A stretch of DNA of 64,000 bases, taken from the NCBI RefSeq assembly GCF_024502345.1, contig NZ_JALDNN010000001.1. One strand, written 5' to 3'. This document shows, in pieces, positions 1 through 36,584 of this stretch (the stretch's first letter is position 1; every line of letters begins with the position of its first letter). The notes beneath the pieces were generated by a model, which had not been told where the DNA came from, did not search any database, and saw only the letters and a program-made list of their open reading frames with translations. Source of the DNA: Escherichia coli. Lineage in GTDB: Bacteria > Pseudomonadota > Gammaproteobacteria > Enterobacterales > Enterobacteriaceae. A program made the translations under genes and the position numbers.

Positions 1-281
1 GGCGTGTCTGCGGTTTTTCAACTATTCAGATACATCACTCCCATCACATTCATTCCTCCGCATCATAGGCATATAGGCTATATCACCTTGATATTTTTCT
101 TCTTCAGATAAAAACTGTTATCTATGTATACTTTTAAACCCAATCCGTGTAGAGTCTCTGCATAAGATAGTTTGCAGTTGCCACTTCAGCTTGCGCCATA
201 AACCGCCTGATTTTTGCCGCCACCTGGGTGATGCTGCCAACTTACTGATTTAGTGTATGATGGTGTTTTTGAGGTGCTCCA

Positions 282-557
282 GTGGCTTCTGTTTCTATCA
301 GCTGTCCCTCCTGTTCAGCTACTGACGGGGTGGTGCGTAACGGCAAAAGCACCGCCGGACATCAGCGCTATCTCTGCTCTCACTGCCGTAAAACATGGCA
401 ACTGCAGTTCACTTACACCGCTTCTCAACCCGGTACGCACCAGAAAATCATTGATATGGCCATGAATGGCGTTGGATGCCGGGCAACCGCCCGCATTATG
501 GGCGTTGGCCTCAACACGATTTTCCGCCATTTAAAAAACTCAGGCCGCAGTCGGTAA
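282..557 (+). CDS. insA: IS1 InsA
   Basis: 91-aa [27 protein letters not shown]..., recognised as IS1 InsA. Confidence 0.95.
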
Positions 558-979
558 CCTCGCGCATACAGCCGGGCAGTGACGTCATCGTCTGCGCGGA
601 AATGGACGAACAGTGGGGATACGTCGGGGCTAAATCGCGCCAGCGCTGGCTGTTTTACGCGTATGACAGGCTCCGGAAGACGGTTGTTGCGCACGTATTC
701 GGTGAACGCACTATGGCGACGCTGGGGCGTCTTATGAGCCTGCTGTCACCCTTTGACGTGGTGATATGGATGACGGATGGCTGGCCGCTGTATGAATCCC
801 GCCTGAAGGGAAAGCTGCACGTAATCAGCAAGCGATATACGCAGCGAATTGAGCGGCATAACCTGAATCTGAGGCAGCACCTGGCACGGCTGGGACGGAA
901 GTCGCTGTCGTTCTCAAAATCGGTGGAGCTGCATGACAAAGTCATCGGGCATTATCTGAACATAAAACACTATCAATAA
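476..979 (+). CDS. insB: IS1 InsB (expressed as InsAB' by frameshift)
   Basis: 167-aa ORF overlapping insA in the -1 frame, typical IS1 arrangement. Confidence 0.9.
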
Positions 980-994
980 GTTGGAGTCATTACC

Positions 995-1092
995 TAAGTC
1001 AGGTATAAATATAAGTGACATTGCCCAAGAATTCAAAACCTCGCGGCAAACCATTTTAAGAGCTAAAGCAAAAAATCAGACACCTGATATAT
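995..1092 (+). pseudogene. C-terminal HTH fragment of a recombinase/DNA-binding protein truncated by IS1
   Basis: Open frame running straight out of the IS1 right end: ...[31 protein letters not shown]. Resembles the C-terminal HTH of serine recombinases; no start codon of its own. Confidence 0.3.
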
Positions 1093-1191
1093 AAAAATAA
1101 TCTCGGTGTGAGATTCCTTACGTTTTCCAAGCCCCCCTTCCTAGCCTTAAATGGAAAGATACTTCTAATTATAGAATTTATATATCTTACC

Positions 1192-1359
1192 CTACGGTAG
1201 GGCTGGCCATTCAATATCCGGTGCAGTTGATGTATCAACACGGTTCAGCAACACCCGATACTTTTTCCAGGCTTCCAGCAACAAGGTTTCTTCCTCCGTT
1301 GCGATCTCCAGATCCACAGCATCCTGAAGCGGCGCTATATGCTCACTGGCTACCTGCAT
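1192..1359 (-). CDS. Hypothetical small acidic protein (55 aa), divergent from the CI-like gene
   Basis: [58 protein letters not shown]; below the 60-aa cutoff of the ORF track; sits in the cro position but shows no obvious HTH. Confidence 0.3.
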
Positions 1360-1439
1360 CAGGCTGTTTTTTGTTTCTTCCGCCTACCTGTAATACTGAT
1401 TGCGAGTTGAATGGTTTGATTTGTCATTATCAATTCCTA

Positions 1440-1537
1440 TTGGTATTGCAATGAATGAATAATAGCAATGCGTATTAATCCAAGCAATAGCAAAACGTGT
1501 TTTGACCATCAATACGCAAGCGTATAAATTAAAACTT
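1440..1537. promoter_or_regulatory. Operator/promoter region upstream of the CI-like gene
   Basis: AATAGCAAT at 1461-1469 and AATAGCAA at 1486-1493; palindromes ATTGCAAT (1445-1452) and ATACGC-AA-GCGTAT (1512-1525); TTGACC (1502-1507) followed by an AT-rich -10-like stretch ending ~9 nt before the ATG at 1538, suggesting a leaderless or near-leaderless transcript. Confidence 0.45.
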
Positions 1538-2230
1538 ATGAAAAAAGAAACTCTTGCTGATCGCTTAAACCTAGCGATGGAACAATCTGGAATGTCTCAA
1601 GGCGCTCTTGCAAAGGCGTCTGGCGTAGCTCAACCCACAATCTGGAGACTGACAAGCGGCAACGCTCGCGGCTCAACAAAAATTGTTGAAATAGCTAATG
1701 CATTGGGTGTTCGAACAGAATGGCTCTCATCAGGCATAGGCCCGATGAGAAATGACGGTCAACAATCAGGGAAGCCTGCTGTCAGCCATTCAAAATACTT
1801 CAAGATTGACGTTCTTGATATAGAAGTGAGTGCCGGGCCGGGAGTCATCAACCGTGAGTTTGTAGAAGTTCTACGCTCGGTTGAGTACTCGTTTGACGAT
1901 GCTCGTCACATGTTCGATGGTAGGAAGGCAGAAAATATCCGCATCATTAACGTACGCGGTGACAGCATGTCAGGAACGATCGAACCAGGTGATCTGCTGT
2001 TCGTTGATATCACGGTTAAATCTTTCGACGGTGATGGTATCTATGCGTTTCTGTATGACGACACCGCCCATGTAAAGCGCCTGCAAATGATGAAGGATAA
2101 GCTACTGGTTATCTCTGATAACAAGAGCTACTCACCGTGGGACCCGATCGAGAAAGACGAGATGAACCGGGTATTCATATTCGGTAAGGTTATTGGGAGC
2201 ATGCCGCAGACGTACAGAAAACACGGATAA
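1538..2230 (+). CDS. CI/LexA-type phage repressor (N-terminal XRE HTH, C-terminal S24 autopeptidase)
   Basis: 230 aa from MKKETLADRLNLAMEQSGMSQGALAKASGVAQPTIWRL (HTH) to ...NVRGDSMSGTIEPGDLLFVDI...AHVKRL (S24 Ser in GDSM and Lys in VKRL). The ORF track offers an upstream ATG at 1502, but that lies inside the promoter-like region. Confidence 0.85.
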   Translation: MKKETLADRLNLAMEQSGMSQGALAKASGVAQPTIWRLTSGNARGSTKIVEIANALGVRTEWLSSGIGPMRNDGQQSGKPAVSHSKYFKIDVLDIEVSAGPGVINREFVEVLRSVEYSFDDARHMFDGRKAENIRIINVRGDSMSGTIEPGDLLFVDITVKSFDGDGIYAFLYDDTAHVKRLQMMKDKLLVISDNKSYSPWDPIEKDEMNRVFIFGKVIGSMPQTYRKHG

Positions 2231-2312
2231 TCAGCCGCGTGTTGATGAGGCTTTTGGGTAATACGCTGAAGAAAATACCTTATAAAAAATAACATTACGG
2301 GAAAGGCAAAAA

Positions 2313-2576
2313 ATGAGTAATAAAACACTTGTTAAAAAATCAAATAACTGTGTCGATGCATACGCCGACGCGTTTGGCTACTCTTCGTTTGGTGACGGCT
2401 CTCAGCGCCTAGGTTCAATTTCTTTTTTTCATAATGTAACTGAATGGCCTGTTGATGAAAGTGACGATGTTGAGAACATAAAGTACAACATTGCAACCAT
2501 TAGAATGCCCGAAGAATTGATGCTTAAATTGGCTGACTTCATTCGCGACCAGCATGACAAAGCTAAAACAAACTAA
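2313..2576 (+). CDS. Hypothetical protein (87 aa), prophage cargo gene
   Basis: ORF with GGAAAGG ribosome-binding site 7 nt upstream; AT-rich compared with neighbours; no family recognised. Confidence 0.5.
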   Translation: MSNKTLVKKSNNCVDAYADAFGYSSFGDGSQRLGSISFFHNVTEWPVDESDDVENIKYNIATIRMPEELMLKLADFIRDQHDKAKTN

Positions 2577-2588
2577 TCGTAATTAATT

Positions 2589-3032
2589 ATGAAACACGAT
2601 TATTACGAAGCTCCAAACCTAAATGATAAAATTGCAAAGGCGGCAAAATCATTTTGTTTGCACTCCAGTGCGTCTTCCCAGCTAGCAGGTATATCTGGAA
2701 AAAGATGGGACATGCTACAATCAAGTGGTAGCAGTGGGTCTGGGAGTGATAACATGCCTGAAAAAGTTGCAAAACTGGAGTCCGATGTTGCTCATATCAA
2801 ACGAGACGTTGATGAACTTAAAACAGACGTTAAAGCTATCGACAAAAATATGATAACTATTCTTGCACGTCTGGACTCTATAAAAGAATCCTTAACAAAC
2901 AAGCCATCAAGTGATGCTGTCGATAGAAAGATTTCAGACGCAAAGCTTGCGGTATTGCTTGGTGTTCCAGCAATCATCGCTGCAGGAACAGGACTTTATA
3001 AGCTATCAATGTACTTTTTCTTTAGTGCTTAA
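2589..3032 (+). CDS. XhlA-like coiled-coil protein with C-terminal transmembrane helix
   Basis: C-terminal 92 aa MPEKVAKLESDVAHIKRDVDELKTDVKAIDKNMITILARLDSIKESL...AKLAVLLGVPAIIAAGTGLYKL: heptad-like coiled coil plus one hydrophobic helix, resembling phage hemolysin XhlA. The ATG at 2589 has no ribosome-binding site; the ATG at 2754 has GGGAG 7 nt upstream and may be the true start. Confidence 0.5.
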   Translation: MKHDYYEAPNLNDKIAKAAKSFCLHSSASSQLAGISGKRWDMLQSSGSSGSGSDNMPEKVAKLESDVAHIKRDVDELKTDVKAIDKNMITILARLDSIKESLTNKPSSDAVDRKISDAKLAVLLGVPAIIAAGTGLYKLSMYFFFSA

Positions 3033-3106
3033 GAAAATGCTCGCACCCTTGCATTAGGTAAAGCGATTTTTCATTCCCCATTACCCTCGCTCTTAACCAA
3101 TCATCT

Positions 3107-3136
3107 AAACCCGGCCACCGTGCCGGGTTTTCTTTT
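3107..3136 (+). terminator. Rho-independent terminator after the CI/cargo operon
   Basis: aaaCCCGGC-caccgt-GCCGGGttttctttt: GC stem, 6-nt loop and T-run, just downstream of the 3032 stop. Confidence 0.6.
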
Positions 3137-3261
3137 GCCCTCCCCTCATCACACACCGTTCAAAAAACCACCACGACCTCACTTCAGTTATCGCTATGCG
3201 ATGCAAGTCACAAAATTAATTCTTTTTGCTATCAAACATTTAATATCAAAACACATCAACT

Positions 3262-3308
3262 AATAGCAATAAGTATTGATATCACCAATAGCAATAGCTA
3301 TTATCACC
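3262..3308 (+). promoter_or_regulatory. Second operator set with pL-like promoter
   Basis: AATAGCAAT at 3262-3270; palindrome AATAGC-AATA-GCTATT at 3287-3302; TATCACC direct repeats at 3280-3286 and 3302-3308; TTGATA (3276-3281), 17-nt spacer, TATTAT (3299-3304) on the + strand. Confidence 0.4.
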
Positions 3309-3497
3309 ATATCGCAACAACACAACGATACGGCAACCACCTGATTCACCGTTGCGATGACCGCTTAGATCCGCAGCTTGAATTTCAGCAGGCTTCGGGG
3401 AGTGCGAGGGATGAAACGGACGCGTGAACGTCGGTGTGACCAGCTGAAATCAACTCAACATTTCATACCTTAGTCGCTTCAACGAGGCGGCTTAGTT

Positions 3498-3788
3498 ATG
3501 ACAACCGGCGGCCATCCACCGCCTGAATACGCGCAGAAGTCTTTATATGTTCAGCAGCCCAGCTTACGGGCAGGAGTTTTTATGGTTCATCAACATTACG
3601 GAACGCAGACCGTTAATCGCGGTGCGGTCATGCCAGGAATGCTGGTCAAACGCAAAGATGGTACCTGGACTGCATCAGCTAATTTACGCGGACGACTTTA
3701 TCTGCATCGCGGCATTGAGCGCACTTATACCCGTGACTTGCTCGTGGAAGTTTTTCTCGACGGACGCGGCAACGGTCTGAATCACTAA
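3498..3788 (+). CDS. Hypothetical prophage protein (96 aa)
   Basis: ORF with GAGG about 10 nt upstream; no family recognised; an internal start MVHQHYG at 3582 is also possible. Confidence 0.35.
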   Translation: MTTGGHPPPEYAQKSLYVQQPSLRAGVFMVHQHYGTQTVNRGAVMPGMLVKRKDGTWTASANLRGRLYLHRGIERTYTRDLLVEVFLDGRGNGLNH

Positions 3789-3863
3789 TCCCCTTTCCTG
3801 TTTTCCGAATCAGCCTGGCATTCCGCGGGCGATTTTTTCACAGCCATTTTCAGGAGTTCAGCC

Positions 3864-4148
3864 ATGAACGCTTATTACATTCAGGATCGTCTTGAGGCTC
3901 AGAGCTGGGCGCGTCACTACCAGCAGATCGCCCGTGAAGAGAAAGAGGCAGAACTGGCAGACGACATGGAAAAAGGCCTGCCCCAGCACCTGTTTGAATC
4001 GCTATGCATCGATCATTTGCAACGCCACGGGGCCAGCAAAAAAGCCATTAGGCGCGATCACTTTCATCTACTCCGTTACAAAGCGAGGCTGGGTATTTCC
4101 CGGCCTTTCTGTTATCAGAAATCCACTGAAAGCACAGCGGCTGGCTGA
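3864..4148 (+). CDS. Hypothetical prophage protein (94 aa)
   Basis: [31 protein letters not shown]... with AGGAG 9 nt upstream. Confidence 0.5.
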
Positions 4149-4175
4149 GAAGATAAATAATAAACGGGAGGCGGT

Positions 4176-4367
4176 ATGCACAAAGCATCTCCTGTTGAGT
4201 TAAGAACGAGTATTGAGATGGCACATAGCCTTGCTCAAATTGGAGTCAGGTTTGTGCCAATACCAGTAGAAACAGACGAAGAATTTCATACGTTAGCCAC
4301 ATCCCTTTCACAAAAGCTGGAAATGATGGTGGCGAAAGCAGAAGCAGATGAGAGAGACCAGGTATGA
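4176..4367 (+). CDS. Hypothetical prophage protein (63 aa)
   Basis: ORF MHKASPVELRTSIEMAHSLAQIGVRFVPIPVETDEEF... with GGGAGG 5 nt upstream. Confidence 0.5.
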   Translation: MHKASPVELRTSIEMAHSLAQIGVRFVPIPVETDEEFHTLATSLSQKLEMMVAKAEADERDQV

Positions 4368-4377
4368 CAACCACTGA

Positions 4378-4656
4378 ATGCATTTTTCTGGCAGCGGGCT
4401 TCATATTCTGTGTGCTTATGCTTTCCGTTTCCATGACCTCAGACACACCTGGGCAAGCTGGCTGATTCAGTCAGGCGTCCCATTATCAGTGCTTCAGGAA
4501 ATGGGCGGATGGGAGTCCATAGAAATGGTTCGTAGGTATGCTCACCTTGCGCCTAATCATTTGACAGAGCATGCGAGGAAAATAGACGACATTTTTGGTG
4601 ATAATGTCCCAAATATGTCCCACTCTGGAATTATGGAGGATATAAAGAAGGCGTAA
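4378..4656 (+). pseudogene. Tyrosine integrase, C-terminal fragment only
   Basis: ...[46 protein letters not shown]... carries the integrase catalytic box (HxLRHT, trailing Y) but only ~80 aa remain; ends 16 bp from the 3' end of argU, the expected attachment site. Confidence 0.8.
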
Positions 4657-4671
4657 CTGATTGAATTGTAA

Positions 4672-4748
4672 TGGCGCGCCCTGCAGGATTCGAACCTGCG
4701 GCCCACGACTTAGAAGGTCGTTGCTCTATCCAACTGAGCTAAGGGCGC
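4672..4748 (-). tRNA. argU: tRNA-Arg (anticodon UCU)
   Basis: Reverse complement reads GCGCCCTTAGCTCAGTTGGATAGAGCAACGACCTTCTAAGTCGTGGGCCGCAGGTTCGAATCCTGCAGGGCGCGCCA (77 nt, anticodon TCT, CCA end). Confidence 0.95.
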
Positions 4749-4990
4749 GTTGATACCGCAATGCGGTGTAATCGCGTGAATTATACGGTCAACCCTTGCT
4801 GAGTCAATGGCTTTTGATCTGGTTGCTGAACAAGTGAACGACCGCGTCTGATTTTCTGATTTATTTCGCTATAGCGGCAAACAAACACACACCGCTGCGC
4901 GTCTGAATCAAGAAAACCCGTATTTTCATGTATCAAAGTACAATTTACCGCCCTAACGGAAAATTGTCCGCTCCTATGAGACTGGTAACT

Positions 4991-5623
4991 ATGAAACCAA
5001 CGTCGGTGATCATTATGGATACTCATCCTATCATCAGAATGTCTATTGAAGTTCTGTTGCAAAAAAACAGTGAATTGCAGATTGTCCTGAAAACGGATGA
5101 TTACCGCATAACCATCGATTATCTCCGAACCCGTCCTGTTGATTTAATCATTATGGATATAGACTTGCCCGGAACAGACGGTTTTACCTTCCTGAAAAGG
5201 ATCAAACAAATCCAGAGCACAGTGAAAGTGTTATTTTTATCATCGAAATCAGAATGCTTTTATGCTGGCAGAGCGATACAAGCTGGTGCTAACGGTTTTG
5301 TCAGTAAATGCAATGATCAGAATAATATTTTTCATGCCGTTCAGATGATCCTCTCCGGATACACGTTTTTTCCCAGCGAAACGCTTAACTATATAAAAAG
5401 CAATAAATGTAGTACGAATAGTTCAACGGTCACTGTGCTATCTAATCGTGAAGTGACCATATTACGTTATCTGGTTAGCGGATTATCTAATAAAGAAATT
5501 GCCGATAAGTTATTACTTAGCAATAAAACAGTTAGTGCGCATAAATCTAATATTTATGGCAAGCTAGGTTTGCATTCAATTGTAGAGCTTATCGACTACG
5601 CCAAATTATACGAATTAATATAA
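4991..5623 (+). CDS. fimZ: Fimbrial response regulator FimZ (LuxR-type)
   Basis: 210 aa from MKPTSVIIMDTHPIIRMSIEVLL...; receiver domain plus C-terminal LuxR HTH. The ORF track's upstream start at 4928 is probably an overcall. Confidence 0.9.
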   Translation: MKPTSVIIMDTHPIIRMSIEVLLQKNSELQIVLKTDDYRITIDYLRTRPVDLIIMDIDLPGTDGFTFLKRIKQIQSTVKVLFLSSKSECFYAGRAIQAGANGFVSKCNDQNNIFHAVQMILSGYTFFPSETLNYIKSNKCSTNSSTVTVLSNREVTILRYLVSGLSNKEIADKLLLSNKTVSAHKSNIYGKLGLHSIVELIDYAKLYELI

Positions 5624-5720
5624 TATTAATTATAATTGATCATAAATATCGCATCCGCTTTCGCCGGTGATGCTGCCAACTTACTGATTTAGTGTATGAT
5701 GGTGTTTTTGAGGTGCTCCA

Positions 5721-5996
5721 GTGGCTTCTGTTTCTATCAGCTGTCCCTCCTGTTCAGCTACTGACGGGGTGGTGCGTAACGGCAAAAGCACCGCCGGACA
5801 TCAGCGCTATCTCTGCTCTCACTGCCGTAAAACATGGCAACTGCAGTTCACTTACACCGCTTCTCAACCCGGTACGCACCAGAAAATCATTGATATGGCC
5901 ATGAATGGCGTTGGATGCCGGGCAACCGCCCGCATTATGGGCGTTGGCCTCAACACGATTTTCCGCCATTTAAAAAACTCAGGCCGCAGTCGGTAA
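5721..5996 (+). CDS. insA: IS1 InsA
   Basis: Protein identical to copy 1 InsA. Confidence 0.95.
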
Positions 5997-6418
5997 CCTC
6001 GCGCATACAGCCGGGCAGTGACGTCATCGTCTGCGCGGAAATGGACGAACAGTGGGGATACGTCGGGGCTAAATCGCGCCAGCGCTGGCTGTTTTACGCG
6101 TATGACAGGCTCCGGAAGACGGTTGTTGCGCACGTATTCGGTGAACGCACTATGGCGACGCTGGGGCGTCTTATGAGCCTGCTGTCACCCTTTGACGTGG
6201 TGATATGGATGACGGATGGCTGGCCGCTGTATGAATCCCGCCTGAAGGGAAAGCTGCACGTAATCAGCAAGCGATATACGCAGCGAATTGAGCGGCATAA
6301 CCTGAATCTGAGGCAGCACCTGGCACGGCTGGGACGGAAGTCGCTGTCGTTCTCAAAATCGGTGGAGCTGCATGACAAAGTCATCGGGCATTATCTGAAC
6401 ATAAAACACTATCAATAA
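5915..6418 (+). CDS. insB: IS1 InsB
   Basis: Protein identical to copy 1 InsB. Confidence 0.9.
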
Positions 6419-6600
6419 GTTGGAGTCATTACCCGAAAAATGAAGCTTTCAATCTCAGCGACCTCAGCGACGGTGCGCCTCACCTTCGCAAGAGGTCGCT
6501 TCACGCGATAAATCTGAAACGAAACCTGACAGCGTGCCCCGCTTCTGACAAAATAGGCGCATCCCCTTCGACCTACGTAACAGATGGAATCCTCTCTCTG

Positions 6601-36122: not shown

Positions 36123-36584
36123 TTACTCTGCACAAGCATCAGGCAATCCAGCTCCAATATTTGTTATAAAATAATGCGTAACATTAATTTCACCAACAAA
36201 AAAAAGGTTTACACCATCCCCTTGCCCTGGTATCTTACCATATTTACACCACACTTTTTTTGTATCTGGATCATTCTTTGATACGATTTTCGCCACTTGT
36301 TCCCTGGCCCTCACTGTCAATGTTTTCTTAAACCTACCCCCATCATCATTTGTTAGGGAAAAATAAGAAAAAAAATAATCATCTTCTACATTTGTGTATA
36401 TTGATATATCCACCGCTACGTGCGGAAAAAAATCTGGGAGCCATGTAAAAACTCCATCATTTTCTGGTATTGCCATATAGTTTATGTAATGTTTACTTAC
36501 AAGAGATTCATCTTTGTATAAATAAAGATAAGTAATTACGCATAAAACAACAATGATTATAATAGCAAAAATAAATATTATCAT
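36123..36584 (-). CDS. Putative Rhs immunity protein (N-terminal transmembrane helix)
   Basis: AT-rich ORF just downstream of the rhs stop; MIIFIFAIIIIVVLCVITYLYLY...; the longer version starting at 36614 would overlap rhs by 20 nt. Confidence 0.6.
   Translation of the reverse strand: MIIFIFAIIIIVVLCVITYLYLYKDESLVSKHYINYMAIPENDGVFTWLPDFFPHVAVDISIYTNVEDDYFFSYFSLTNDDGGRFKKTLTVRAREQVAKIVSKNDPDTKKVWCKYGKIPGQGDGVNLFFVGEINVTHYFITNIGAGLPDACAE

Follow-up and report, generated by a model that had tools for sequence, protein, structure and literature searches.

Two clusters of 16-bp pseudo-palindromic boxes flank a repressor gene and its two cargo genes in Escherichia coli DNA. The boxes are very probably operators of the dimeric CI protein encoded between the clusters, and regulation at the locus would resemble that of lambda and HK022. 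The stretch analyzed as a whole, hereafter the window, measures 64,000 nucleotides. The left cluster (boxes starting at 1461, 1486 and 1511) would correspond to OR, the right one (3287, 3262 and a weak distal box at 3218) to OL. The locus features what distinguishes a lambdoid immunity region, i.e. a repressor made of a helix-turn-helix (HTH) and an S24 domain, a divergent cro, boxes superimposed on PR and PRM and, beyond cI, a second box set over PL, which reads away from cI. The arrangement is textbook lambdoid, real but ordinary, and the immunity type is a common one. A sequence-only reading of the same DNA had likened the two sets flanking the CI-cargo operon to OL and OR of lambda. The comparison is borne out by the overlap with promoters, by the invariant 25-bp spacing and the retention of the boxes in nine loci of three host genera, and by a natural swap, in which operators change along with the CI N-terminal domain and Cro.

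Sequence and layout of the putative operator boxes

Genes, predicted promoters and boxes map in the window as follows.

1359..1427, minus strand: truncated cro (cro'); 14 native codons (MTNQTIQLAISITG) are left, from 1427 down to 1384
1432..1447, minus strand: candidate fourth, weak box (AATACCAATAGGAATT), between the PR start and the cro ATG
1459..1487, minus strand: predicted PR (lytic, rightward-type promoter, reading leftward here), read by eye
1461..1476, plus strand: OR1-like operator AATAGCAATGCGTATT, overlapping the PR -10
1486..1501, plus strand: OR2-like operator AATAGCAAAACGTGTT, starting 25 bp after OR1 in 9/9 loci
1502..1530, plus strand: predicted PRM (cI maintenance promoter), from a promoter scan, TTGACC-N17-TAAATT
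1511..1526, plus strand: OR3-like operator AATACGCAAGCGTATA, between the PRM -35 and -10
1538..2230, plus strand: cI repressor, 230 aa, 434-like HTH and S24 domain
2313..2576, plus strand: cargo gene 1, 87 aa, phrog_4231 or phrog_3556 (pair), no assigned function
2589..3032, plus strand: cargo gene 2, 147 aa, phrog_4231 or phrog_3556 (pair), no assigned function
3107..3138, plus strand: predicted intrinsic terminator of the cI-cargo operon, from a scan (9-bp stem, 6 GC pairs, T-tract)
3218..3233, minus strand: OL3-like weak box (GATAGCAAAAAGAATT on the minus strand), starting 44 bp before OL2
3262..3277, plus strand: OL2-like operator AATAGCAATAAGTATT, overlapping the PL -35
3276..3304, plus strand: predicted PL, from a promoter scan, TTGATA-N17-TATTAT, 10/12 consensus matches
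3287..3302, plus strand: OL1-like operator AATAGCAATAGCTATT, between the PL -35 and -10 and overlapping the -10
3582..3788, plus strand: kil, 68 aa (FtsZ-inhibitor family), phrog_294; NCBIfam PRK11354 matches below its cut-off

The 8-mer AATAGCAA is the left, better-conserved half of the box, in which half-sites AATA-S-N-N-W make up the full site AATAsnnA-nnnsTATT. Copies at 1461-1468, 1486-1493, 3262-3269 and 3287-3294 start where the sequence-only reading had placed them. The same reading had confined the motif to the two intergenic regions, and a fifth copy contradicts this: found at 36561-36568, it lies within AT-rich coding DNA and lacks the right half of the box. The question of whether the motif is simply common in AT-rich DNA has two answers in the 64-kb window. 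The bare 8-mer is not significantly enriched (5 observed vs 2.33 expected; at least 5 in 9/100 shuffles), whereas the extended 16-bp pattern AATAGCAANNNNTNTT is non-random (4 matches vs 0.06 expected; 4 reached in 0/100 shuffles). An 8-mer of whatever sequence with two or more copies in each of the 111-bp AT-rich regions arises in 5 of 5000 dinucleotide shuffles of these regions. When a position weight matrix (PWM) is built from the left sites only, the two right sites are the best matches elsewhere in the 64 kb; left-region sites score highest with a matrix made from the right sites only, and the boxes of the window rank top with one derived from Salmonella and Klebsiella phage sites only.

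Start-to-start spacing is 25 bp in the left set (1461, 1486, 1511) as in the right one (3262, 3287). OR1, OR2, OL1 and OL2 score 20–22 bits, OR3 ~15, the OL3-like box 11–15. The latter two depart strongly from the main consensus and could be primarily Cro sites; the OL3-like box could also be no site at all. In each set the first box (OR1, OL1) overlaps a TATTAT -10 and the second (OR2, OL2) a -35. The similarity of the PL and PR regions is partly forced by their common promoter hexamers, since the box shares its outer AATA/TATT with the TATTAT -10.

In the OR region, PR is made of a -35 TTGCTT (1487-1482), N17, and a -10 TATTAT (1464-1459), and went unreported by the consensus scanner because the -35 matches at 3/6 positions only. 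Relatives have an invariant PR -10 and conserve the TTG of the -35. Among phages of E. coli, Salmonella and Klebsiella, OR1 varies at its central 2 bp only; OR2 extends 2 bp into the PR -35 and adjoins the PRM -35. The PRM sequence is invariant in relatives; its start is predicted at, or 1–3 nt before, the cI ATG (1538), so that the cI mRNA would be near-leaderless, with no Shine-Dalgarno. The PRM -35 (TTGACC, 1502-1507) is near-consensus, and lambda-style activation by OR2-bound CI may therefore be unnecessary. Both this hexamer and the 14-bp perfect palindrome ATACGCAAGCGTAT (1512-1525) had been correctly located earlier; the palindrome, contained in OR3, is on sequence grounds a third right-hand (OR3-like) box inside PRM. 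OR3 starts 50 bp from the OR1 start, in register in 9/9 loci and invariant in sequence, and its half-site AATACGCA recurs as the right half of OR1. A fourth box at 1432..1447 is uncertain. The candidate scores 12.5–16.5 bits in all PWMs (rank 4–7 in the window), is only partly conserved in ST104 and Klebsiella, and overlaps the cro Shine-Dalgarno; its conservation may reflect the ribosome-binding site.

In the OL region, the palindrome AATAGC-AATA-GCTATT noted earlier does occupy 3287-3302, i.e. OL1. At the OL1 position ST104 and the Klebsiella phage carry an inverted box (AATACTCAwTGCTATT), as a dimer site with two-fold symmetry would lead one to expect. The OL3-like box, AATTC(T/A)TTT(T/A)GCTATC, is kept 44–45 bp from OL2 in 9/9 loci. 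The TATCACC direct repeats which the sequence-only reading had described are present at 3280-3286 and 3302-3308, but are absent at the same positions in Perceval, ST104 and the Klebsiella phage; considered as lambda-like half-sites, or as a separate element, and rejected, they are probably incidental. Downstream, kil is the first recognisable PL-transcribed gene still present, and the intact prophage L001 has a counterpart with the annotation 'cell division inhibitor'; gam' also lies downstream of PL. Positions 1000-5000 were scanned with Rfam for RNA elements, nut/put-like ones included; nothing was found between PL and kil, the only hits being tRNA-Arg and an 'IS009' match left of OR.

Conservation and co-variation in related phages

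The comparison covers nine phages or prophages of E. coli, Salmonella and Klebsiella whose repressors have the DNA-binding domain in common. Box geometry is identical in 9/9 loci (0/25/50 in OR; 44-45/25 in OL), while flanks and the cargo between cI and OL vary, and with the cargo the OR-OL distance, which ranges from 1776 to 2715 bp. In the phylogenetic footprint, invariant positions are 46/48 inside the boxes vs 32/63 outside in OR (p = 7e-8), and 38/48 vs 35/123 in OL (p = 2e-9). The OR-cI segment was found in 718 of 5426 complete E. coli genomes (13%). The immunity group includes Salmonella P22-like and Klebsiella lambdoid phages, the LF82 prophage Perceval and the NC101 prophage; in relatives cro is intact, and diverges from cI across a short intergenic region. 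Literature searches found no motif or operator work on this immunity type, and no binding, footprint, transcription-start or reporter studies of this repressor.

A natural swap is provided by the Klebsiella phage RCIP0114. It has a near-identical CI C-terminal domain and near-identical DNA downstream of PL, but the N-terminal domain and Cro are HK022-like; the operators are TGAAC-N5-GTwCA boxes, as in HK022, and AATAGCAA boxes number zero. RCIP0114 and ST11-VIM1phi8.2 share C-terminal domain and flanks, and differ in N-terminal domain, Cro and boxes. By this comparison, operators co-vary with the CI N-terminal domain and Cro, as expected of an immunity specificity module.

These data bear on the view that the recurrence has no protein-binding meaning, and reflects shared promoter architecture, an ancient PL/PR duplication, or chance in AT-rich DNA. 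Both regions have a GC content of ~27–31%, the bare 8-mer is not enriched across the window, and the outer AATA/TATT of two boxes coincide with -10 hexamers. Yet the local shuffles seldom match the signal and the 16-bp pattern far exceeds its expected number; conservation is just as high in boxes or parts thereof lying outside the hexamers (OR2 body, OR3, OL2 body); other phages have OL1 in the opposite orientation; and where the repressor HTH is a different one, all boxes are exchanged, with adjacent DNA unchanged. Such an origin is highly improbable.

The 230-aa repressor predicted earlier is confirmed as the ORF 1538..2230. The N-terminal domain matches 434-type HTHs (E = 1.6e-5), the C-terminal one is a UmuD/LexA-type S24 autocleavage domain (PDB search, NCBIfam domains) with Ala99-Gly100, Ser143 and Lys180; the Ala-Gly, Ser and Lys residues are invariant. 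CI matches phrog_4 and phrog_6201 (CI-like repressor), and protein cluster names for CI and Cro are generic only. Phage PhiR30_1 and the NC101 prophage encode the very same protein (100% identity), and Perceval CI is 98% identical. Compared with other carriers, cI shows 19 nucleotide differences, 19 synonymous and 0 non-synonymous; the gene is, to judge from these substitutions, under purifying selection. In the LF82 lysogen few prophage genes are expressed, the Perceval cI and the cargo gene downstream of it being two of them (PMC9928086); operators are not mentioned in that paper.

Instead of CI, a YdaS-like protein of the Cro type or some other phage regulator could be the main ligand of the boxes, which would then be vestigial in this remnant without cro. 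Co-variation with the boxes is seen for Cro and for the CI N-terminal domain alike, and comparative data therefore do not separate the two proteins; moreover, the perfect palindrome of OR3 is unlike the other boxes and could be Cro-preferred. Against this, CI and Cro use the same operators in every studied lambdoid switch, and the two proteins have matching recognition-helix motifs, QPT(I/V)WR (QPTIWR in CI, QPTVWR in the cognate Cro). In addition, the CI protein is perfectly conserved despite the 19 synonymous changes, and cI lies exactly between the two clusters, with boxes on its own promoter. Binding by a regulator other than CI appears quite improbable, and CI operators, which in intact phages the cognate Cro would also recognise, are the preferred reading.

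Comparison with known switches and possible OL-OR looping

The locus resembles lambda in the order PL/OL, cargo, cI, PRM/OR/PR, cro, with moron cargo downstream of cI; in the three evenly spaced pseudo-palindromic OR boxes, OR1 and OR2 over PR, OR2 abutting the PRM -35 and OR3 in PRM; in the leaderless, or here predicted near-leaderless, cI mRNA; in the HTH-S24 repressor; and in the ~2 kb separating OL and OR. It differs in that lambda operators measure 17 bp, with half-site TATCACCGC, and are spaced by 23–24 bp, vs 16 bp (AATAG...CTATT) and 25 bp here; the third left box is adjacent in lambda, separated (44 bp) here; the PRM -35 is near-consensus, and the N gene is absent between PL and kil. 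The CI is not closely homologous to that of lambda, of which no chain reached the E = 0.01 threshold of the PDB search. Lambda immunity specificity was rejected, as the two TATCACC strings by OL1 are unconserved and the nearest N-terminal domain is that of 434.

CI is 40% identical to HK022 CI over the full length, mostly in the S24/oligomerisation C-terminal domain. HK022 (Carlson & Little 1993, as cited in PMC8053113) likewise has three OR boxes and no N gene next to PL, and an OL3 set apart from OL2, by 53 bp vs 28 bp edge-to-edge here. In contrast, the HK022 operators, as read from L010, have the form TGAAC-N5-GTTCA/GTACA; its N-terminal domain and Cro have no more than the HTH fold in common with those compared here; and its OL and OR lie only ~0.7 kb apart with no cargo between. 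A counterpart of the HK022 OFR site, ~300 bp downstream of OR, was sought in intact relatives, which have only sub-threshold matches inside cro. The ST104 annotation 'similar to HK022 cI' had pointed to HK022 immunity, an assignment that was rejected: only the C-terminal domain is shared, and operators, N-terminal domain and Cro differ.

The solved structures closest to the N-terminal domain are those of 434 (1sq8, 2r63, 1per; E ~1e-5). Also in 434 the outer 4 bp of the sites are conserved (ACAA, vs AATA here) and the inner bases variable, and repressor and Cro have similar recognition helices. The 434 helix is QQSIEQ rather than QPTIWR. The 434 immunity specificity was rejected too, as 434 sites are 14-bp ACAA-N6-TTGT and boxes here 16-bp AATA-N8-TATT.

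By analogy with lambda and HK022, CI dimers on OR1 plus OR2 and on OL1 plus OL2 would cover the -10 and -35 of PR and PL. CI binding itself, and an order of affinity among the boxes, are inferred. The OR2-bound dimer would adjoin the PRM -35, and may activate this promoter, which is predicted to transcribe cI and the two cargo genes as a near-leaderless mRNA. OR3 occupancy within the PRM core would lead to negative autoregulation of cI. RecA-stimulated self-cleavage of CI at Ala99-Gly100 would derepress PL and PR, making the module SOS-inducible.

CI complexes on OL and OR, 1.8 kb apart, probably meet via a DNA loop. Looping is plausible by analogy with the lambda, HK022 and phiKO2 repressors, which all loop OL-OR in vivo in the loopometer, and HK022 CI combines looping with highly cooperative binding (PMC8053113). 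The operators may otherwise be real but independent, with CI cooperative on adjacent boxes only and no loop forming or mattering. Consistent with independent sets, no sequence feature demonstrates a loop, OR and OL lie at variable distances from each other, the OL3-like box is a weak one, and with a strong PRM -35 a loop-dependent fine control may be dispensable. However, the loopometer showed OL-OR loops for 3/3 lambdoid repressors, one of them HK022 CI with its homologous C-terminal domain; loops of 0.7–3.8 kb tolerate variable distances; and HK022 has a detached OL3, which the conserved OL3-like box, ~4 helical turns (44 bp) away from OL2, resembles. Independence of OL and OR is a possibility, though a rather doubtful one.

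The repressor cassette of a defective prophage

The locus is a defective lambdoid prophage at tRNA-Arg (argU). The remnant keeps an intact cI, two cargo genes and the PL-kil unit, and misses replication, lysis and structural genes. At ~1384 cro' is joined to a tail-fibre-assembly/invertase remnant, with loss of the HTH: alignment with L001 is identical from 1384 rightward, the flank left of cro' matches tfa and recombinase remnants, and the exact cro'-tfa' junction was not found in complete E. coli genomes. The window probably comes from an IS1-rich lineage akin to Shigella. Without the genes for replication, lysis and structure, and with only 14 codons of cro left, the module can no longer switch. 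The cargo genes (2313..3032), co-oriented with cI, occupy the position of lambda rexAB; PADLOC and NCBIfam searches of the two proteins gave no credible match, and relatives have different cargo in the same cI-to-OL slot. The remnant is most likely a constitutive repressor and immunity cassette, which silences PL-kil and expresses the cargo.

Domesticated prophage repressors silencing division inhibitors are featured by E. coli K-12, as RacR/kil in Rac and DicA/dicB in Qin. The likeness is in a defective prophage keeping a repressor whose loss would derepress a division inhibitor, PL-kil being intact here. To our knowledge RacR and DicA have no S24 domain, unlike this CI. A further step, suggested tentatively, is that in an IS1-rich host the prophage has been reduced to an actively retained, SOS-responsive CI-operator cassette, combining immunity, PRM-driven cargo, kil addiction and HK022-like looping. 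In such a cassette CI would confer immunity to a lambdoid type so common that 13% of complete E. coli genomes have it, and would be 'addictive' because its loss derepresses PL-kil; the 44-bp OL3-OL2 gap and the OR3 palindrome would bring about HK022-like loop-dependent regulation, unlike that of lambda.

The architecture being classical lambdoid, no new question of gene regulation is raised. The analysis defines operator consensus and layout for a widespread immunity group, for which no footprinting study was found in the literature, and flags the cI-to-OL slot as a variable cargo site. Consensus and layout may serve prophage annotation, the prediction of homoimmunity, reporter design, and the development of orthogonal repressor-operator pairs.

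Organization of the prophage remnant

A heavily decayed lambdoid prophage, inserted beside a tRNA-Arg gene, spans positions 1-4750 of the window. Beyond it are fimZ and folD; two IS1 copies are found in the window. Remnants of DNA invertase and tail-fibre-assembly genes occupy the leftmost part of the locus, and are followed rightward by truncated cro (cro'), an AT-rich intergenic region of 110 bp, the repressor gene cI, two small cargo genes, a terminator, a second AT-rich region and kil. Right of kil are a truncated gam, a 63-aa ORF without name or assigned function, and a truncated int.

Features of the prophage remnant
1427 down to 1384: cro, 14 codons left
1538..2230: cI
2313..2576: cargo gene 1
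2589..3032: cargo gene 2
3107-3130: intrinsic terminator, between cargo genes and second AT-rich region
3582..3788: kil
4675-4748, minus strand: tRNA-Arg gene

In intact relatives that occupy this chromosomal site, the left side comprises cro, a YdaT-like cII, O and P, and the right side kil, gam, bet, exo and int. At the cro'-tfa' deletion junction (995-1427) the 14 cro codons are fused to the tail-fibre-assembly C-terminus and a pin-like invertase remnant. This exact junction had no matches among complete E. coli RefSeq genomes, which, with the IS1 copies, suggests a Shigella-like lineage. The IS1 copies (201-1000 and 5666-6433) are identical to each other; the second sits where the sfm/fim fimbrial operon is found in other E. 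coli strains, with fimZ and folD on either side, and an IS1-associated deletion is implied. A full-length match to Rfam RF02111 'IS009' (1226-1426, minus strand, 177.7 bits, model positions 1-199) begins one base past the cro ATG, crosses the junction at about 1384, and would be on the predicted PR transcript.

The 230-aa CI matches the HTH domain of the phage 434 repressor (residues 6-66) and UmuD/LexA S24 peptidases (residues 137-219); its relatives all retain the Ala-Gly cleavage site, Ser143 and Lys180. CI is 98-100% identical in PhiR30_1, PhiR70_1, Perceval and the OkiPb01695 and NC101 prophages of E. coli, 86% in the P22-like Salmonella phage ST104, 82-83% in the Klebsiella phage ST11-VIM1phi8.2, and has a 74% tblastn match in Salmonella phage ST-87. 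In the deposited genome of ST-87 (L006, about 4499-5190) cI is apparently frameshifted near codon 40, with operators left intact; either a sequencing error or a mutation of clear-plaque type could account for the frameshift. Relative to those of functional phages, window cI has 19 substitutions, all of them synonymous, and encodes an identical protein. A small RNA, svsR, has been described at the cI 3' end of the lambdoid prophage NC-SV of E. coli NC101 (PMC12803456, 2026). Only one NC101 locus matches the OR-cI region; its CI and that of the window are 100% identical, and the cI 3' end in the window (about 2150-2230) may therefore carry an svsR homologue.

Boxes and promoters flanking cI

The sequence-only reading had assigned the 8-mer AATAGCAA exclusively to the two non-coding regions flanking the repressor cassette. 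All its coordinates were right on re-check, and four copies do lie in those regions, but a fifth is found at 36561, in AT-rich coding DNA. The bare 8-mer is not significantly enriched window-wide (5 observed, 2.33 expected). The four intergenic copies are left halves of a 16-bp box, candidate CI operator, whose pattern AATAGCAANNNNTNTT occurs 4 times in the window versus 0.06 expected.

Boxes (OR, left cluster; OL, right cluster) and predicted promoters
1461 (start): OR1-like box, AATAGCAATGCGTATT, over PR -10
1486 (start): OR2-like box, AATAGCAAAACGTGTT, 2-bp overlap with PR -35, adjoins PRM -35
1511 (start): OR3-like box, AATACGCAAGCGTATA, between PRM -35 and -10
3218 (start), minus strand: weak OL3-like box, GATAGCAAAAAGAATT, 44 bp before OL2
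3262 (start): OL2-like box, AATAGCAATAAGTATT, over PL -35
3287 (start): OL1-like box, AATAGCAATAGCTATT, between PL -35 and -10, overlapping -10
1487-1459, minus strand: PR, TTGCTT-N17-TATTAT, mirror image of PL
1502-1530: PRM, TTGACC-N17-TAAATT, promoter scan
3276-3304: PL, TTGATA-N17-TATTAT, promoter scan

Starts are spaced by exactly 25 bp in the left cluster as between the last two right boxes, and the palindrome ATACGC-AA-GCGTAT, listed in the sequence-only reading, makes up the third left box, which keeps the register of the first two. AATA-S-N-N-W describes the 8-bp half-sites of every box, with least variation in the four outer bases. When only the two 111-bp regions (27-31% GC) were shuffled, some 8-mer appeared two or more times in each region in 5 of 5000 shuffles. 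A weight matrix made from the three left boxes finds the two right boxes as best matches elsewhere in the 64 kb, one made from the two right boxes scores left-region sites highest, and one made from Salmonella and Klebsiella phage sites alone has the five boxes as its five best matches.

PR was not called by the promoter scanner, because its -35 matches the consensus at 3 of 6 positions only. The predicted PRM transcript would start at, or no more than about 3 nt from, the cI ATG, which is preceded by no Shine-Dalgarno sequence. This near-leaderless transcript resembles the cI message of lambda, which is leaderless.

Homoimmune loci and the RCIP0114 domain swap

In nine loci of E. coli, Salmonella and Klebsiella encoding the same repressor DNA-binding domain, OR boxes start at 0, 25 and 50 bp, OL1 starts 25 bp past OL2, and an OL3-like box is found 44-45 bp before OL2. 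The OR-OL distance varies from 1776 to 2715 bp, because the cargo between cI and OL differs in each phage. Among four lineages, invariant positions are 46/48 in OR boxes versus 32/63 in non-box non-coding DNA, and 38/48 versus 35/123 at OL. OL1 is inverted (AATACTCAwTGCTATT) in ST104 and in the Klebsiella phage, as would fit a symmetric dimer site; a directional element would not allow inversion. The OR-cI segment is carried by 718 of 5426 complete E. coli genomes, and the immunity type is common.

In the Klebsiella phage RCIP0114, CI has a C-terminal domain almost identical to that of AATAGCAA-type CIs, an N-terminal domain resembling that of HK022 CI, and is accompanied by an HK022-like Cro. 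Downstream of PL its DNA hardly differs from that of the homoimmune Klebsiella phage. No AATAGCAA boxes were found at its OR and OL, which feature TGAAC-N5-GTwCA boxes, the type seen at HK022 OR and OL. Box sequence thus follows the domains with which CI and Cro bind DNA. Homoimmune CI and Cro have the recognition-helix motif QPT(I/V)WR in common, consistent with both proteins reading the same sites. The chimeric repressor and its HK022-type operators (L007, 4382-4449 and 7500-7620) are a clean case of immunity-specificity exchange at a domain boundary.

Cargo, probable looping and predicted immunity in the host

The cI-OL slot (2313-3032) corresponds to the position of rexAB in lambda. Its cargo is unrelated between homoimmune phages (window; L002-L005, L008, L011): 87-aa and 147-aa proteins without assigned function in the window, a DUF6932 pair in NC101, a ParA-like protein in the Klebsiella phage, orf23 in ST104. 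The 147-aa protein (phrog_3556, no function assigned) features a coiled-coil and a hydrophobic C-terminal tail. The window cargo proteins gave no PADLOC matches; the 147-aa one may be a moron that acts in exclusion or defence. No gene for an N-like antiterminator lies in the PL-kil leader, about 270 nt long (3305-3581), and Rfam has no match there. The leader includes an 8-bp inverted repeat, ATCGCAAC...GTTGCGAT (3311-3358), and a 20-codon ORF (3411..3473) with an arginine-rich N-terminus (MKRTRERRCDQLKSTQHFIP), preceded by GAGGG.

The architecture is that of a classical lambdoid immunity region. The lambda, 434 and HK022 specificities were each tested, and none fitted. CI and Cro have only generic names in databases, and a literature search found no publications on these operators.

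Looping between OL and OR, proposed in the sequence-only reading, is plausible and rather probable for this CI. Lambda, HK022 and phiKO2 repressors loop in vivo (PMC8053113); CI is 40% identical to HK022 CI, mostly in the C-terminal domain; and the conserved OL3-like box is set apart, as is OL3 in HK022.

Since cro and every lytic function except kil and gam' are gone, the CI-Cro switch, judging from gene content, cannot flip here. CI would be made constitutively from PRM, autoregulated via OR3, and would silence PL-kil; the cargo genes would be co-expressed with cI. CI would also confer immunity toward homoimmune phages. Few prophage genes are expressed in an LF82 lysogen; those of Perceval CI and of the membrane-protein cargo downstream of it are two of them (PMC9928086). 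The main use of the result is in annotation and homoimmunity prediction.
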